DNA from: Candidatus Methanophagales archaeon
Lineage (GTDB): Archaea; Halobacteriota; Syntropharchaeia; Alkanophagales; Methanospirareceae
Direction of reading: 5' to 3'
NCBI GenBank assembly: GCA_030602585.1
Contig: JAUVZJ010000004.1
Span: 279 to 64,278 of the forward strand
DNA length: 64,000 nt
In this document: positions 1,271 to 57,216 of the stretch, piece by piece
Layout of the letters: every line of letters begins with the position of its first letter
Numbering within the stretch: position 1 is the stretch's first letter
The notes under the pieces: model-generated
What the model saw: the letters and a program-made list of their open reading frames with translations, nothing else
Told to the model about the DNA's origin: nothing
Databases searched by the model: none
Translations under genes and position numbers: made by a program

Positions 1271-1729
1271 ATGAATCAAAGTGAAGAGAAGGAAAAGCCA
1301 GAAAGAATACCCTGGGACGAATACTGGATGAATATCGTAAACGACGTGGCGAAGCGTTCAACTTGTTTGCGAAGGCAAATAGGTGCATTAGTGGTTAAAA
1401 ATAACGCGATAATATCTACGGGCTATAACGGCGCACCGCGCGGATTCCCGCATTGTCTCGATGTCGGATGCCGGCGAGATAAATTGAATATAGCATCGGG
1501 TGAAAGACACGAGGAGTGCGTTGGCGTACATGCAGAACAAAATGCGCTCTTACAGGCGGGTAGAGACGCAAACAGCGCTACGCTATACGCAAACGCATTC
1601 CCGTGCAAGATATGTGCTAAATTAATAATAAACGCAGGGATAAAGAATGTAGTGATGTCAGGGGAATACAGCGATAAAGAAGGATTGGAATATTTGAAGA
1701 TGGCGGGCATAGAGCTCGTTTATCTTTGA
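1271..1729 (+). CDS. dCMP / cytidine deaminase zinc-binding family protein
   Basis: HAEQNA...PCKICAKLI zinc-binding deaminase signature (H-x-E and PC-x2-C); 152 aa. Confidence 0.7.
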   Translation: MNQSEEKEKPERIPWDEYWMNIVNDVAKRSTCLRRQIGALVVKNNAIISTGYNGAPRGFPHCLDVGCRRDKLNIASGERHEECVGVHAEQNALLQAGRDANSATLYANAFPCKICAKLIINAGIKNVVMSGEYSDKEGLEYLKMAGIELVYL

Positions 1730-7801: not shown

Positions 7802-8314
7802 ATGAGCGAAGTTATGCGAGAAGTGTTAGATTCATTAGCGAAAATGGGGAAGCAATGGGACTTAGGGGAATCAGTGGGACGTGTCTGGGGCTTCTTACTG
7901 TTCAAGTCCTGTCCCGTAACGCAGAAGGAGATAGAAGAAGGCACGGGCTACAGCAGGGGATTGATTAGCCGAAGTTTGAAGGAATTAAAAAGGGGACCCA
8001 TGATTGAAGTAAAGAGAGAGGGAAGAGAAATCCGTTATTCTGTTAATACCTCTTTAACAGAGAGTTTTAATGAACTGTTGAAGCGTTTTCTCGCTGAGAA
8101 CATCGAACCGATGATTGAATTGCTATCCACGAGTCAGGATAAAATCGACGATGCAAAAGTGAGGGATACTTTTCTCGCACTCTTACACGAATACAAGAAA
8201 TTAAACCTCGCTGTTCTCCTGTTCTCCAGAATAATGAACGATATAAATACGATGCCCGTAGGGGTAGAGAACATTGAAGAAGTGGCAAAGAACATTTCGA
8301 TGAAGATAAGATAA
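7802..8314 (+). CDS. winged-helix transcriptional regulator (GbsR/MarR-like)
   Basis: N-terminal wHTH (VTQKEIEEGTGYSRGLISRSLKEL); lies upstream of the surface-protein/MMPL locus; paralogue at 52806..53246. Confidence 0.5.
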   Translation: MSEVMREVLDSLAKMGKQWDLGESVGRVWGFLLFKSCPVTQKEIEEGTGYSRGLISRSLKELKRGPMIEVKREGREIRYSVNTSLTESFNELLKRFLAENIEPMIELLSTSQDKIDDAKVRDTFLALLHEYKKLNLAVLLFSRIMNDINTMPVGVENIEEVAKNISMKIR

Positions 8315-14557: not shown

Positions 14558-14732
14558 AAGTTTTTGTTTTTTTTTACTTCAAACTTCAATATCCGTACTT
14601 ATTTACCGCGGAGCCCACAGAGAACACAGAGACTCAAAAAATCATTTATCTCATCTCAGCGCTCTCCGTGATCTCGGCGGTACAAATACCAATATCCTTA
14701 TATACAAGAATTAAAAATGTTGAGCCACGTAG

Positions 14733-23453: not shown

Positions 23454-24527
23454 TTATTCTTGCGTTTTCAGCACTTGTTTTTGCCTGGTTTGCGAATTGA
23501 CCGCCTCTTGATACTGTTTGTTTTCAAGTGCTGTTTTTGCCTGGTTCAAGAGATTTTGAGCCTCTGCTGTATCTGCTCCGATTTTGTTTGCAGAGGCGAT
23601 TTCGGATTGTGCTTTCGAAATTGCATTCGTGATTGTAGATAGTAGTTCAATCTTTGATTTAGTAGCGAACGCATACACACAATAATCCGGCGAGCAAACA
23701 TACACCACACCGTCTGCCACCGCAGGTGACCTGACAGGTGACCTGACAGTGCCACCCGTTTTGTATTTCCATTTCTCTGCACCACTATCGGCATCTAACG
23801 CATACATATAATCATAACCCGAGCCAACAACTACACCGCCTGCTACCACTGGTGACGAACTGACCCAATCATCCTTTTTGTATTTCCACTTCTCTTTACC
23901 ACTATCGGCATCTAACGCATACACATAATCACCCGAGCCAACATACACCACACCGTCTGCTACCGCTGGTGACGAACTGAACCAGCCACCCGTTTTGTAT
24001 TTCCATTTCTCTGCACCACTATCGGCATCTAACGCATACACATAACTATCAGCCGAGCCAACATACACCACTCCGTCTGCTACCGCTGGTGACGAATGAA
24101 CAGAATCACCCGTTTCGTATTTCCATTTCTCTTCCCCACTATCGGCATCTAACGCATACACATAATCATCATACGAGCCGACATACACCACTCCGTCTGC
24201 TACCGCAGGTGACGAACTGACACCATCACCAGGTTTGAATTTCCACAATAGTTCCAGCGGCGGTTCAGCTTCACCATCTGCTTGTCCGGTATGTGCGGGG
24301 TCGTGGCGGAACATGGGCCAGTCGGTTGATGTGAGTGTTTTAATTGATGTGGGGGTTGGTGCTGTTAATACAAGGGTTGTTTCGACCTCTTTCTGATACT
24401 GCCCGCCATCCAGTTCCGCAGATGCTGGCATTGTCACTAACGACAGCAATCCAACAACAACCAGTACTACAATAACTATCCCTATTTTTCCTTGTTCGTT
24501 CTTAATTTTTATTTCCATTTTCCTCAT
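23454..24527 (-). CDS. PQQ-repeat beta-propeller protein with N-terminal membrane anchor
   Basis: Six or more repeats of AVADGVVYVGSxDxYVYALDADSGxEKWKYKTG; N-terminal TM; C-terminal coiled coil. Confidence 0.7.
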   Translation of the reverse strand: MRKMEIKIKNEQGKIGIVIVVLVVVGLLSLVTMPASAELDGGQYQKEVETTLVLTAPTPTSIKTLTSTDWPMFRHDPAHTGQADGEAEPPLELLWKFKPGDGVSSSPAVADGVVYVGSYDDYVYALDADSGEEKWKYETGDSVHSSPAVADGVVYVGSADSYVYALDADSGAEKWKYKTGGWFSSSPAVADGVVYVGSGDYVYALDADSGKEKWKYKKDDWVSSSPVVAGGVVVGSGYDYMYALDADSGAEKWKYKTGGTVRSPVRSPAVADGVVYVCSPDYCVYAFATKSKIELLSTITNAISKAQSEIASANKIGADTAEAQNLLNQAKTALENKQYQEAVNSQTRQKQVLKTQE

Positions 24528-24831
24528 GTGAAAATCTATTTCCCTATTTTTAAAGGGACAAACTGATGATAAAAAGTTTAGTATTGTTTCAATTATTATT
24601 ACAAATATAAGCTAAAAAATTTAAAATATTCGAAATTTAATTTCGGAATTGTGATAACTTTATATAGCAGATAGTTCATACCTTAAGTAAAAGATGTGCA
24701 GGCTAATGGATGAGGCGTAAAAAGAATGAATAGGGAAATTTTTGGAGATAAGTGTTTCATACAGAGAGATGTATACAAACCAAGTTTGGATATACAACGT
24801 TATATGAAATTGCCAGTTGGTGGAATGAGAA

Positions 24832-25875
24832 ATGGATATTGAAAGAGCCGTAGAGAAGTATCTAGTTGCGATTAGAAGCGATATTTTCGCAGAATATGAA
24901 AAAGAATTTGCTCAGAAAATTACTTCTGCACTGGCGAAAGGATATCTTCAAAATTCACATGAAACACCTTTGGTTCAAATTGTAGAAGATGTAGTTAACA
25001 ACGTTGATAACTTAAATAGGAAAGATCACTTTGAGTTATCAACAAGATCCATTTTCATTCATGGAAACAAATCACAAGTCAAGTTTGATTGTTACGGACA
25101 GAGCGTGCCATCAATAGAGTTGGGCGACTTAATATTCATTATCTCAGTTGTTTTTGATAATAAGAAATATTTTGAGAAATTCACAATCAATCAATTTAAA
25201 AGGGATAAAAGAAACACCAAAAGCATATCTTGGAGTATAGGCAATAGAAAACAACTTTATTTGTTATCACGATTTCCAACATTCCGAGGAGTGAAAGGTC
25301 TTATCCCAAAGAAGGATTTTAATTTACCGAATTATTCGGGCTGTTTAGGTTCTTATGGATTACTTTACAATCCAGGAGACTTTGCCTTTGTTAGCGCTAC
25401 TGGATTAGATTCCTTTATCGGTCATAAGAAGACTCTGAAAAAGAAAGAGCTCTATCATTTGACTGAAAAGTACCTGTTTCCCTATTTTCCCTATTTTTAT
25501 CCCGATATAGATGAGTTACTTTCTTTGTCATCCGAATTCAAGAGGTATTTGTCATGGAATCTTTTTGGCAATTATCATCGTGCATATAACGTATTTGATT
25601 TTGCACATAAATACCTGAGAGTAGGCATTGGTGAACCTATATTTATGAAAATAGGAATATATAACTCACTAGCCAAAAACTTTCTTCATGAGTTGTTCTC
25701 GGCAGTAAAAATCAAAGCAAGAAGAGAGCGGGATATATTAAAGTTCATAGACGGGTTTTTTAGATATGATTATGCAAGCAGTGAAGGAGAAGGTAGTTTT
25801 AGAGGAAATATAGAATTTGATTTTGAGGGAGGGGGAATAGGGATAATTCATACAATAATAAATCTAGGTGAGTAA
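24832..25875 (+). CDS. island ORF 1: hypothetical protein with PD-(D/E)xK-like nuclease core motif
   Basis: AT-rich 347-aa ORF; segment ELGDLIFIISVVFDNKK fits the hhhD...hhh(D/E)xK pattern; no other recognisable features. Confidence 0.4.
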   Translation: MDIERAVEKYLVAIRSDIFAEYEKEFAQKITSALAKGYLQNSHETPLVQIVEDVVNNVDNLNRKDHFELSTRSIFIHGNKSQVKFDCYGQSVPSIELGDLIFIISVVFDNKKYFEKFTINQFKRDKRNTKSISWSIGNRKQLYLLSRFPTFRGVKGLIPKKDFNLPNYSGCLGSYGLLYNPGDFAFVSATGLDSFIGHKKTLKKKELYHLTEKYLFPYFPYFYPDIDELLSLSSEFKRYLSWNLFGNYHRAYNVFDFAHKYLRVGIGEPIFMKIGIYNSLAKNFLHELFSAVKIKARRERDILKFIDGFFRYDYASSEGEGSFRGNIEFDFEGGGIGIIHTIINLGE

Positions 25876-26025
25876 TGATGGTGACTTTATATAACAAAAT
25901 ATATCTGGCTTTGCGCCTTCGGCACTCCGCCAAAATTTGCTCCGCTATCACTTCACAAACTTCAGATACGCTAGGAACGTTTAGCGAGATTGGGTTAAAC
26001 TTACCAGTAAGAAAGGAGGTTTTAG

Positions 26026-26460
26026 ATGGCAGTAATTAGTGCAACTCTAGATTGGGACGGTGTATGGGTGATAAAGGAGGATGAGATACCTTCTAATATC
26101 CCCGATGAAGAAGGGATTTATATGGTCCACAGTGGAAAACGCTCTGACGAACCCAACAAATGGGTCCCATCATCCTATGAATTGCTGTACATTGGAGAAG
26201 CTGAAGAAGTCCGCTCTAGAATTGCCGGGCACGAAAAGTGGTCATGTTGGAAGCGGAATTGTAAAAACCACATACTTTTGAAAGTGGCCAGATGTAGATT
26301 CGGAACTACAAAAAGGCAAAAGGTTGAGTGTTGCTTGATATACAAGACTAAGCCAACCTGCAATGATGAATGCAAAGACGATTTCCCTCATAAGAATGAC
26401 ACAATCCAGATAACAAATACAGGTATGATATCGCCTTTGAAAGATAACTATACTTGCTAA
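26026..26460 (+). CDS. island ORF 2: GIY-YIG-like nuclease domain protein with Cys-rich tail
   Basis: GIYMV (aa 30-34), LLYIGEA (53-59), VRSRIAGHE (Arg/His/Glu); C-terminal Cys cluster; RBS AGGAGG upstream. Confidence 0.45.
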   Translation: MAVISATLDWDGVWVIKEDEIPSNIPDEEGIYMVHSGKRSDEPNKWVPSSYELLYIGEAEEVRSRIAGHEKWSCWKRNCKNHILLKVARCRFGTTKRQKVECCLIYKTKPTCNDECKDDFPHKNDTIQITNTGMISPLKDNYTC

Positions 26461-26534
26461 GTTGGGGCTAGCAACTTAGCCTAACAGCGTGTATCTAGCT
26501 CAGCTACGCTTCGCCAACATTTAGGATAGATGCT

Positions 26535-27188
26535 ATGGATGAAAATCCGAGAAAATACATTGTAAGTATAAGTATCTCCTCGGTAAATTATACATACAAA
26601 AAATCCGAGGAACTAATGTTTCTAACCCAAAGGTTCCCAGAGCAATCAAATACTTTAGCTGCATGTGCAGTTGTTCTTTTTGCAGCAACTTTGGATCAAG
26701 GCACTTTAACTGTCTTAAAAACACTGATTAACCAATATGCGGCCACTAACTTGATAGATACTGACAGTGTTCCTTTTAGTCGTGTAGTAAAGGAATCATT
26801 AAAGAACCGTATTATGAAACTTCCAAGTATAGTAACAGAAGCAAAGTACTGTCTCAGATCAGATATAAAAGAAGTTGAACATTTATACGCTATAGTAACC
26901 ACTAGGAACAATCTCGTTCACATTCAAGATGATATCCGTTTAATCTATAACCCAGAAGTTAAATATGTTGAAGAAAAGGGGGTGTTTCAAACAGTTATCA
27001 AACACCCGAACCCGTGGAAAGATGTTACTTTGAACAAAGTCAAGCAGTATTACCAATCTTTTAGGACTTATTACAACCAAGTGTTATTTCCTTCATATGA
27101 AATACCCGATTCCAAATTGTTACAAAAGAATAATAAAGAAGAAAAAAATACATACTATCAGATATACTTGAATGCCCTATCAGGGTAA
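26535..27188 (+). CDS. island ORF 3: hypothetical protein with HEPN-like R-N-x3-H motif
   Basis: TTRNNLVH at aa 123-129 matches the Rx4-6H HEPN catalytic motif with a polar residue after Arg. Confidence 0.35.
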   Translation: MDENPRKYIVSISISSVNYTYKKSEELMFLTQRFPEQSNTLAACAVVLFAATLDQGTLTVLKTLINQYAATNLIDTDSVPFSRVVKESLKNRIMKLPSIVTEAKYCLRSDIKEVEHLYAIVTTRNNLVHIQDDIRLIYNPEVKYVEEKGVFQTVIKHPNPWKDVTLNKVKQYYQSFRTYYNQVLFPSYEIPDSKLLQKNNKEEKNTYYQIYLNALSG

Positions 27189-27231
27189 TGTTGACCCATC
27201 CTAGTTTTTAGACAAAATAATACGCGGCACA

Positions 27232-27591
27232 ATGTCGTATAACTACACATTTGAGGCTCCACTCGGATTTGAGCCCAATGTTAATCTACACGAGAAGCTA
27301 TCACGGTGCCACGGCTTAAAAGAATACAAGAAGCTATGGAAAGAAGAACTAACACGTAAAGATCAAACTATTCCTTTACTCACCGAGATAGTAGAAAATT
27401 GGAATGAGTTCACTGATGCTTTTAATCTACGGCATACACTTATTCACGGACGGGGGACTTGCTCAAGGAATATGGCAGAAAAGCCTGTCGAAGAAATGCT
27501 TTTGGCAACTGATGCTCTGTATGATTTTGCGCGGTCTCGTGGAAAAAACCTTAATGACCGACTTCCTGTTCGCAGGAAAAAAGCGAATTAG
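27232..27591 (+). CDS. island ORF 4: hypothetical protein with HEPN-like R-H-x3-H motif
   Basis: FNLRHTLIHG at aa 64-73; 119 aa; 43 nt downstream of ORF 3. Confidence 0.35.
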   Translation: MSYNYTFEAPLGFEPNVNLHEKLSRCHGLKEYKKLWKEELTRKDQTIPLLTEIVENWNEFTDAFNLRHTLIHGRGTCSRNMAEKPVEEMLLATDALYDFARSRGKNLNDRLPVRRKKAN

Positions 27592-27690
27592 CAAAGACAA
27601 ATAGGCCGGCGCTATCTCTCTTAACATGTGAAAAATAGCCTAAACATATAACTTAATATAGATAAAAAAGAATAAAATAAGCAACTAAAA

Positions 27691-27882
27691 ATGGAAAGCA
27701 GAATAATATTTGATACCAAAAGGCTCATTAAAGAATTAGGTATATCTCAGGAAGAATACAAAGAATTAGAAAAAACCGTTAAAAAAGAATTCCCACAGGA
27801 TGAAATGATGTTTCAGTTACATCTTTTGCGGGCATTAAAATCTATAAGCCATAAGAAAGCTAAGGAAAGAGGAACGTTTTAG
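27691..27882 (+). CDS. small protein, putative antitoxin partner of the downstream PIN protein
   Basis: 63 aa, helical and charged; ends 2 nt before the PIN gene. Confidence 0.35.
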   Translation: MESRIIFDTKRLIKELGISQEEYKELEKTVKKEFPQDEMMFQLHLLRALKSISHKKAKERGTF

Positions 27883-27884
27883 CG

Positions 27885-28340
27885 ATGGTGCGCAGAATTA
27901 TAAAGGTTTATCTGGATACATCGGTGATCAGCGCTTTATTTGACGAAAGAAACGCAGAACGAAAAAACCACACAGAGGAGTTTTGGAGAGAACTTAGAGA
28001 TTATGAGGTTTATGTCTCTACGCTGGTAAATGAGGAACTCGATGCGGCATCTGATGAAATAAGGGCGGAAATGATTGATAAAAATAGAGGGTTTAAAATC
28101 TTAGAAATCACTGATGAGGTGGAACGACTTGCTGAAGAATATCTAAGCAAAGGAATTTTCCCGGAGCGATATAAAGACGATGCTATACATGTTGCTGTGG
28201 CTGTGGCAAATAATATAGATTTCCTCATCAGTTGGAATTTTAGACATTTAGTTAAAGTTAAAACTCGTAGAATGGTTAATTTAATAAATGAGATATTGGG
28301 CTATCCACACATAGAAATCATAGCCCCACCTGAACTCTGA
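27885..28340 (+). CDS. PIN domain (VapC-like) ribonuclease
   Basis: N-terminal VYLDTSVISALFD and DAIHVAVAVANNIDFLISWN acidic PIN motifs; 151 aa. Confidence 0.6.
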   Translation: MVRRIIKVYLDTSVISALFDERNAERKNHTEEFWRELRDYEVYVSTLVNEELDAASDEIRAEMIDKNRGFKILEITDEVERLAEEYLSKGIFPERYKDDAIHVAVAVANNIDFLISWNFRHLVKVKTRRMVNLINEILGYPHIEIIAPPEL

Positions 28341-28535
28341 ACTTTCTCTTCTTTCGCTATCTCTTCTAAATTTCTTTTAATTTTGATGAATCCACGTGTT
28401 TCATTTTCTCTTTCTCAGAAGATATGCTACCGCCAATAGTCCTGCGATTGCATCCCTAAACTTGTATCTTGTATCCTGTATCCTGCATCATGAATCCCTG
28501 CTTCATTTTCTTGCTACCTCTGCACAACCGCCCCT

Positions 28536-57098: not shown

Positions 57099-57216
57099 GG
57101 GCGTGTGGCCTAGTTAGGACATGGCGGCAGCCTCCTAACAAACTTTTAAAAAAGTTTGATTAAAATGCAAAATGGGAGAAAGCTGCAAATCACGGGTTCA
57201 AATCCCGTCACGCCCG
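57099..57216 (+). tRNA. tRNA-Arg (anticodon CCT) with ~43-nt anticodon-loop intron
   Basis: Acceptor GGGCGTG/CACGCCC; T-arm ACGGG-TTCAAAT-CCCGT; anticodon stem GCAGC/GCTGC separated by loop CTCCTAA plus a 43-nt insert containing the hairpin AAACTTTTAAAAAAGTTT; TATA-like TTTAAATA upstream. Confidence 0.65.

Follow-up and report, generated by a model that had tools for sequence, protein, structure and literature searches.

A probable stand-alone HEPN RNase gene beside the truncated relic of an unrelated HEPN-like gene in a Candidatus Methanophagales archaeon

Two small adjacent open reading frames (ORFs), both encoding an R-[N/H]-x3-H motif of the HEPN type, lie at positions 26535–27591 of a 64,000-nucleotide (nt) stretch of Candidatus Methanophagales DNA (contig JAUVZJ010000004.1, assembly GCA_030602585.1), referred to below as the window. 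Our analysis indicates that the first of them, ORF3, is probably an intact stand-alone HEPN RNase acting as a toxin or defence effector, and that the second, ORF4, is probably the displaced, 5'-truncated relic of another gene and not a partner of ORF3. The four elements on which this reading centres are the following, with positions counted from the first letter of the window.

26535–27188, + strand: ORF3, 217 amino acids (aa), an intact stand-alone HEPN-like protein of an unannotated family
26904–26921, + strand: Rx4H motif of ORF3, RNNLVH (R124–H129), predicted to be catalytic, read directly from the sequence
27232–27591, + strand: ORF4, a 119-aa open frame, the 5'-truncated copy of a family of ~154 aa
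27430–27447, + strand: Rx4H motif of ORF4, RHTLIH (R67–H72; R101–H106 in full-length numbering), read directly from the sequence

The codons AGG AAC AAT CTC GTT CAC at 26904–26921 encode R124-N-N-L-V-H129 of ORF3, and CGG CAT ACA CTT ATT CAC at 27430–27447 encode R67-H-T-L-I-H72 of ORF4. The coordinates given in the initial annotation for both motifs and for the 43-nt spacing between the ORFs (27189–27231) match the sequence exactly. According to Anantharaman et al. (2013; PMC3710099), HEPN proteins are characterized by Rx4-6H in which the arginine is immediately followed by a polar residue (N, D or H), by the position of this motif at the C-terminus of the penultimate core helix, ahead of the loop leading into the final helix, and by a further conserved acidic position located upstream, on helix-2, which usually takes the form Ex3[KR]. 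The motif pattern by itself is weak evidence. By chance, R[NDH]x3H would be expected 0.020 times in a protein of 217 aa and 0.011 times in one of 119 aa, and across the 65 long ORFs of the window it was seen five times versus 1.7 expected. At least two of the other three occurrences look like chance, one being in a PQQ-repeat protein and one in a spurious ORF overlapping an ATPase-subunit-like gene, and the remaining one (RNCKNH, residue 77 of the 144-aa protein encoded upstream of ORF3) is probably a chance occurrence as well. The meaning of both motifs therefore depends on their homologues.

Both motifs are raised above chance because they are conserved across each family, in 68 of 68 aligned members for ORF3 and, for the R and H, in 76 of 76 members for ORF4. 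Furthermore, confident AlphaFold2 models place both at the C-terminal end of the penultimate core helix. The initial annotation had proposed a HEPN-type motif in both proteins and had made this proposal depend on a helical location and on conservation in homologues; since the motif is kept in homologues of both families and sits on the expected helix, the proposal proved to be genuine.

Relatives of ORF3 were collected with an exhaustive phmmer search of 1.84 billion cluster representatives (50% identity) at E < 1e-3. This gave 91 proteins that are 20–36% identical and almost all about 200 aa long, with one outlier, a repetitive match of 864 aa. A word-indexed homologue search with ORF3 returned only ORF3 itself, a plasmid search returned no ORF3 relative, and the viral contigs searched contained no relative of either family. 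In the alignment of 68 members, only R124, N125, H129 and Y179 are fully invariant, followed by the nearly invariant L41, L53, P97, L127 and W161. Position 54, which belongs to the long N-terminal helix, is acidic (E or D) in 56 of the 68 members; Q follows it in 60 of the 68, without the [KR] partner. Gene callers place the start of ORF3 at 26616 (P0001, 190 aa), 27 codons downstream of 26535. The latter is the better start, because the alignments of the relatives begin at residues 2–14 of the 217-aa protein and a confident AlphaFold2 helix is predicted at residues 17–33.

The AlphaFold2 model of ORF3, calculated with the family alignment, reached a predicted local distance difference test score (pLDDT) of 91.6 and a predicted template modelling score (pTM) of 0.84. 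It consists of helix 17–33, a long helix 35–72, short helices and a strand, helix 112–128 ending in the motif, a beta-hairpin at 143–152 and a long helix 166–184. In a Foldseek search against the PDB, the most probable matches were the HEPN toxin 7ae6, Csm6, 1ylm and 1jog, none of them significant (E ≥ 0.8, template modelling (TM) scores 0.33/0.46); we take 1ylm (YutE) and 1jog to be HEPN proteins from the literature, not from the match titles. At the profile level, PF18735 (HEPN_RiboL-PSP) is matched by 23 of the 68 family members through two segments, the helix-2 region (profile 22–59) and the motif region (143–172), and scattered weak matches were also obtained to other HEPN models, namely PF18737, PADLOC Cas13-ApeA and RTasHEPN. 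Combined, these results indicate that ORF3 is most likely an intact stand-alone HEPN-domain protein whose family lies outside Pfam, NCBIfam, PADLOC and PHROGs, with RiboL-PSP-HEPN as its nearest, distant, described relative.

RiboL-PSP-HEPN is an Abi-related HEPN clade, distantly related to AbiF and AbiD and listed as bacterial (PMC3710099). Like ORF3, the RiboL-PSP-HEPN proteins (PF18735) carry an R-N-x3-H motif and are small, mostly helical and solo, sometimes next to restriction-modification or defence genes. In contrast, the ORF3 family has neither a fusion to endoribonuclease L-PSP nor a ParB neighbour, ORF3 possesses a beta-hairpin insert (143–152) between helix-3 and helix-4 together with the nearly or fully invariant W161 and Y179, and the window ORF3 is found in an archaeon. 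A second point of comparison is offered by the minimal solo HEPN and HEPN-T structures (HepT 7ae6 and 7ae8; AF0298, 2hsb; 4nqf; 1ylm; 2q00), which are the top structural matches of the models of both families at non-significant Foldseek E-values of 0.8–8, but which have no sequence-level relation to either the ORF3 or the ORF4 family. The type II toxin-antitoxin arrangement HEPN/MNT (HepT-MntA) was considered and rejected, as no nucleotidyltransferase domain occurs among the neighbours at 24832–28340, where the only recognizable toxin-type domain is PIN.

In terms of function, the closest parallel may be ApeA. As described in a preprint (bioRxiv 10.64898/2026.01.26.701840), ApeA is an anti-phage system made up of one HEPN protein, which cuts the anticodon loops of tRNAs and assembles into large doughnut-shaped oligomers with a ligand-binding pocket. 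ApeA could thus be a functional analogue of ORF3, in that one HEPN protein alone serves as an abortive-infection RNase. The PADLOC Cas13-ApeA HEPN model is weakly matched in the motif region by ORF3 (E = 1.7e-3) and by one relative (2.3e-4). However, the ORF3 match spans only ~50–75 residues around the motif, and ORF3 is not a member of the ApeA family.

By analogy with the HEPN superfamily, for which metal-independent endoRNase activity that leaves 2',3'-cyclic phosphate ends is characteristic, ORF3 would most likely form a homodimer, and the two R124-N125-x3-H129 motifs together with D54 of helix-2 would form a metal-independent RNase site. The protein may act as a toxin or an abortive-infection-type effector that stays silent until triggered, located in a 4-kb low-GC (guanine plus cytosine) islet; this setting fits such a role.

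ORF4 has 9 close relatives, and a profile search of 90%-identity clusters (E ≤ 0.01) brought the family to 82 relatives altogether, from bacteria and archaea, all named 'hypothetical' and without a Pfam domain. Their lengths are 90–185 aa overall, nearly all 148–168 and typically ~154. In 76 members, E35, R40, W91, R101, H106 and A116 are invariant, and R101 is followed by H in 66 members and by N in 9, the family signature being E-x4-R plus R-H-x-L-I-H-G-R-G-T-C. The AlphaFold2 model of the full-length homologue P0002 (86% identical; pLDDT 94.6, pTM 0.90) shows helices at 8–21 (helix-1), 23–45 (helix-2, bearing E35 and R40), 50–58, 63–75, 84–87, 91–106 (helix-3, which ends with R101..H106) and 113–136 (helix-4). 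This layout agrees with the HEPN description in PMC3710099, with the middle part as a helical insert. The acidic residue on helix 23–45 is spaced Ex4R instead of the HEPN-typical Ex3[KR]. Foldseek gave 2q00, a HEPN protein, as the best match of P0002 (probability 0.84, TM 0.50/0.61, non-significant E-values); lower-ranked matches include the HEPN entries 2hsb (AF0298), Csm6, Csx1-Crn2, 4nqf and the HepT toxin. Searching PDB sequences with profiles led only to spurious matches (Vipp1, designed repeat proteins and a glycosyltransferase), and Pfam, NCBIfam, PADLOC and PHROGs gave nothing significant for ORF3, ORF4 or their neighbours, except PIN at 27885–28340. Judged by motif, predicted topology and best structural neighbours, the ORF4 family appears to be a compact solo HEPN-like family, and the evidence that both families belong to the HEPN superfamily is good but not conclusive.

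Both families occur in varied surroundings. ORF4-family genes are solo, several in defence-type contexts (MvaI/BcnI restriction-modification with Vsr; type I restriction-modification with YgjP, DUF4268 and HNH; an OLD-family ATPase with DUF2130) and others in ordinary ones; a genome scan with alignment A3 contributed four loci. Beside the ORF3 relatives, one locus contains YgjP and a KAP NTPase and another contains glycosyl- and methyltransferases, and the 395-aa gene upstream of the relative in locus L009 is unrelated to the 347-aa gene of the window. Neither family has a conserved neighbour gene in the loci examined.

Alignment with the relatives reveals that the window copy of ORF4 lacks the conserved N-terminal 45 residues of the family (MFFVAD..KKKKIR.YL.REPMIAVLLAAANFEWTVGRCILFFG), and its own residues 1–11 (MSYNYTFEAPL) are unmatched in the family. 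The lost part corresponds to helices 1–2, the first alpha-hairpin, and contains two of the six invariant residues, E35 and R40. Because helices 1–2 are gone, window ORF4 cannot form a four-helix bundle alone.

The origin of this truncation is indicated by a sister locus on a metagenome contig (L003), in which a 143-aa gene is followed directly by a full-length 153-aa ORF4 and ORF3 is absent. By blastn and MAFFT, L003 is homologous to the window at 25976–26522 (95.8% nt identity) and at 27263–27601 (93.8%). Between these blocks, L003 has 312 nt, comprising the intergenic region and ORF4 codons 1–44, versus 740 nt in the window (26523–27262).

26523–27262, no strand assigned: low-GC segment of 740 nt, not in L003 by blastn and MAFFT, which carries ORF3
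27263–27601, + strand: the part of ORF4, with 10 nt past its stop codon, sharing homology with the full-length gene of L003 (93.8%) and to the decayed copy of L015/L016 (94.4%)

The 740-nt segment begins 12 nt before the ORF3 start codon and ends 31 nt after the ATG of truncated ORF4, and thus supplies this ATG and the first 10 codons. Its GC fraction is 0.347, compared with 0.414 and 0.419 for the flanking homologous genes. Because the other family members are full length, parsimony favours a replacement, in the lineage of the window, of the 5' end of ORF4 by the segment that carries ORF3. In this event, the 740-nt segment would have taken the place of 312 nt and removed helices 1–2 of ORF4 with E35-x4-R40, leaving a remnant that would comprise the 3' two-thirds of another HEPN-like gene, unrelated to ORF3 and encoding ~154 aa. 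The truncated frame was apparently opened by a fortuitous in-frame ATG within the insert, and the relic is most likely non-functional.

The junctions of the 740-nt segment showed neither terminal nor flanking repeats. An integron-type gene cassette was also considered as its source and rejected, since 27185–27275 folded as single-stranded DNA on both strands gave z-scores of -0.09 and -0.42, which does not exceed what shuffled sequences give, and no attC-like hairpin.

HEPN active sites are generally composite and formed by dimers. In the initial annotation, the two neighbouring proteins were accordingly suggested to assemble one RNase, in which ORF3 and the 119-aa ORF4 would each contribute one Rx4H motif to a composite site. 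In a variant that we considered as well, the half-HEPN remnant would bind ORF3 and hold it inactive in an antitoxin-like manner. The intact and family-conserved motifs in both proteins speak for such a heterodimer, as do the shared strand, the short distance of 43 nt and the retention of an ATG and an open frame by ORF4 while the related copy in L015 is frameshifted. However, co-occurrence does not bear it out. When hidden Markov models of both families were run against six-frame translations of the window and of the loci collected up to L014, the families were found together only in the window and in its identical metagenome copies L001 and L002. They were not together in nine other distinct ORF4-family loci (L003–L008, where L005 and L006 are the same locus, and L011–L014) nor in two other ORF3-family loci (L009, L010), and in all these other contexts both are solo genes. 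The adjacency itself stems from a recent rearrangement that is absent from the 94–96% identical L003, and ORF4 has lost the two helices and the E35/R40 pair that its own bundle would require. An obligate heterodimer thus has no comparative support, and we regard a heterodimeric RNase or its antitoxin-like variant as very improbable.

The initial annotation had also raised the alternative that the 43-nt gap marks the split of one ancestral gene, i.e., that ORF3 and ORF4 are the halves of a two-HEPN protein broken by a stop codon or frameshift. Two adjacent ORFs on the same strand, 43 nt apart and with one Rx4H each, would be compatible with this, and tandem-HEPN proteins such as Cas13 and the Csx1 dyads do exist (PMC3710099). 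Nevertheless, among the 91 ORF3 and the 82 ORF4 relatives there is no protein as long as a fusion would be, apart from the repetitive 864-aa match. The two families are unrelated at the profile level, hhalign aligning only the 21-residue motif helix with a probability of 2.4%. In addition, the true N-terminus of ORF4 (45 residues, conserved in 76 relatives) is missing and is not encoded upstream, and the supposed break lies within a segment that L003 lacks entirely. The split-gene explanation is therefore effectively refuted.

The decay of ORF4 was further assessed in a third allele, represented by L015 and L016, which is 94% identical to the window at 27263–27614 only and has an unrelated 265-aa gene upstream and pheS downstream. 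This 265-aa gene is also unrelated to the 347-aa gene of the window. The ORF4 copy of L015/L016 has lost its first ~17 codons, its called product starts from M24, and it contains one +2 and one -1 frameshift. A further decayed copy is present in a metagenome-assembled genome of an uncultured Spirochaetaceae (L014, 3977–4264), in which residues ~60–118 are recognizable and the tail has diverged. By eye, the translations of the genes next to this copy look GNAT-like and TetR-like. The decayed copies in L014, L015/L016 and the window suggest frequent inactivation within the ORF4 family, a common fate of toxin genes. Three-way polarization of the substitutions gave nonsynonymous to synonymous counts of 6:1 on the window branch, compared with 6:5 for L003, where the copy is intact, and 1:4 for L015. 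Among the window-branch changes is R54H, which affects a site kept by at least 90% of the ORF4 family and also argues against a functional heterodimer.

Several observations weigh against our reading of an intact ORF3 beside a defunct ORF4. The substitution counts are small, so that 6:1 is not significant and is consistent with relaxed constraint only, and the pairwise ratio of nonsynonymous to synonymous rates between the window and L003 copies of ORF4 is 0.64. Truncated ORF4 keeps an ATG, an uninterrupted frame and all motif residues; it may retain a residual function, or may be translated and bind something. The direction of the event is deduced by parsimony from a single sister locus on a 1.6-kb contig. 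As to the HEPN assignment, ORF3 itself has no Pfam match, and the PF18735 gathering score of 28.4 bits is reached by no ORF3 relative, the best scoring 25.2. No HEPN model or solved structure could be linked to the ORF4 family by sequence, and the structural model of this family is that of P0002, not of the window protein.

A comparable outcome is known from Rhs/CDI polymorphic-toxin loci, in which orphan toxin modules are displaced by cassette replacement. As in those loci, a toxin-type gene arrives by recombination, and the adjoining truncated predecessor keeps its catalytic motif without its N-terminal part. In Rhs/CDI systems, the displaced pieces are C-terminal toxin tips with immunity genes, and exchange proceeds via homology in the conserved N-terminal region. 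ORF3 and ORF4, in contrast, share no homology, and no immunity gene is evident.

As a result, two small families absent from Pfam, NCBIfam, PADLOC and PHROGs can be assigned to the HEPN RNase superfamily on the basis of invariant catalytic-type residues and confident models, an assignment that could help to annotate bacterial and archaeal defence islands better. In addition, the locus illustrates how a reading at the motif level can mislead, as an apparent two-component RNase is seen, through a sister allele, to be an intact gene beside a displaced relic. In practice, the consequence is modest: a new candidate for a toxin or defence RNase, plus one ORF to be flagged as a pseudogene.

The surroundings of ORF3 and ORF4 form a low-GC islet at ~24500–28500 of the window, with GC fractions of 0.30–0.38 in all but one 500-nt bin, versus 0.41–0.49 in the adjacent flanks. 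It is bounded by a PQQ-repeat surface-protein gene and a polyprenyl-phosphate-transporter-like gene. Within it lie ORF3 and the ORF4 relic, three genes whose function is unknown, and a PIN-domain gene with the small ORF that precedes it. The locus can be described as ordinary rearrangement or mosaicism in a defence or toxin islet.

24832–25875, + strand: 347-aa gene, GC 0.337, with no detectable homology
25875–26039, + strand: 54-aa ORF, starting on the last base of the stop codon of the 347-aa gene and overlapped by the 144-aa gene
26026–26460, + strand: 144-aa gene with a weak GIY-YIG-like signature (YIGEAEEVRSRIAGH), 95.8% nt identical to its counterpart in L003, where it precedes intact ORF4
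27691–27882, + strand: 63-aa ORF, 2 nt before the PIN-domain gene
27885–28340, + strand: PIN-domain gene, 151 aa (PF01850, E = 8e-9)

The 347-aa, 54-aa and 144-aa genes look like one operon of unknown function. The GIY-YIG-like stretch of the 144-aa protein is YELLYIGEAEEVRSRIAGH, and its weak matches comprise GIY-YIG nucleases, the N-terminus of UvrC, a phage endonuclease PHROG and the PADLOC candidate PDC-S14. Among the loci examined, the 144-aa gene was found outside the window only in L003.

These upstream genes give rise to another explanation, in which they constitute a multi-gene defence system with an exchangeable last HEPN effector, and an ORF4-type effector was replaced like-for-like at a hotspot by an ORF3-type effector that works with the upstream genes. 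Such a modular swap would account for the order of genes, since in L003 a 45-aa and a 143-aa gene are followed directly by an intact ORF4-type HEPN gene, and in the window the same genes are followed by the ORF3-type gene. Moreover, ORF3 starts 12 nt inside the replaced segment, which leaves no room for a promoter of its own, and the weak matches of the 144-aa protein to PDC-S14 and GIY-YIG nucleases would suit a defence system. The breakpoints of three alleles lie beside the same short sequence.

26506–26516, + strand: 11-mer ACGCTTCGCCA, directly left of the rearrangement junction

The same 11-mer occurs at 751–761 of L003, likewise directly left of the breakpoint, and at 924–934 of L015, 22 nt before the ORF4 homology resumes; L015 is an allele that was rearranged independently and has otherwise non-homologous flanks. 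One more copy, at 1347–1357 (- strand) of the window inside a dCMP-deaminase-like gene, looks like chance. The 11-mer may mark a favoured site of recombination or be left over from the native upstream region of ORF4, three alleles being too few to tell. In addition, L016 (JGI contig Ga0209986_10000721, 32.7 kb) ends 4 nt from the point at which the window and L003 diverge (window 27263). This is the expected behaviour of an assembler if the population carries more than one allele at the junction, and thus suggests a population polymorphism there, in line with a modular swap.

On the other hand, the 144-aa gene stands beside neither HEPN family in any further locus examined, and members of both families stand alone among varied neighbours. 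No significant family assignment was obtained for the upstream proteins, the ORF4 remnant of L015 is preceded by the unrelated 265-aa protein, and the evidence comes from one short sister contig. Therefore, we consider it unlikely that ORF3 is the swapped-in last component of such a system, and continue to favour a stand-alone ORF3 beside a displaced relic.

A further, rather improbable proposal concerns the junction itself. A recombination hotspot located after the 144-aa gene and ahead of the 3' part of ORF4, marked by ACGCTTCGCCA, might allow like-for-like exchange of HEPN effectors that clips the resident gene at differing codons (~45 in the window, ~18 in L015/L016), so that 3' relics still bearing the motif stay behind. 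Such an exchange would be the archaeal equivalent of orphan-toxin displacement in polymorphic-toxin loci, possibly serving the upstream GIY-YIG-like defence operon.

Just downstream of the ORF4 relic, the 63-aa ORF and the PIN-domain gene form, by their arrangement, a VapBC-like toxin-antitoxin pair. This pair is surrounded by imperfect 15-nt direct repeats, CGCTATCTCTCTTAA at 27610–27624 and CGCTATCTCTTCTAA at 28355–28369. The first of them sits where the homology to L003 and L015 ends, and the repeats could be insertion scars or due to chance.

Elsewhere in the window, an ~84-nt stretch at 14596–14693 is 86–89% identical to L016 at 2772–2855 and 7910–7954, L016 being otherwise non-syntenic. 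Rfam found nothing there, and the matches suggest a short dispersed repeat common to two related genomes. The host chromosome looks archaeal, with an archaeal RecJ-like nuclease and a 118-nt tRNA match. The latter, at 57099–57216 (+ strand), covers the full Rfam tRNA model with 52 bits, was not called by ARAGORN and probably represents an intron-containing archaeal tRNA.

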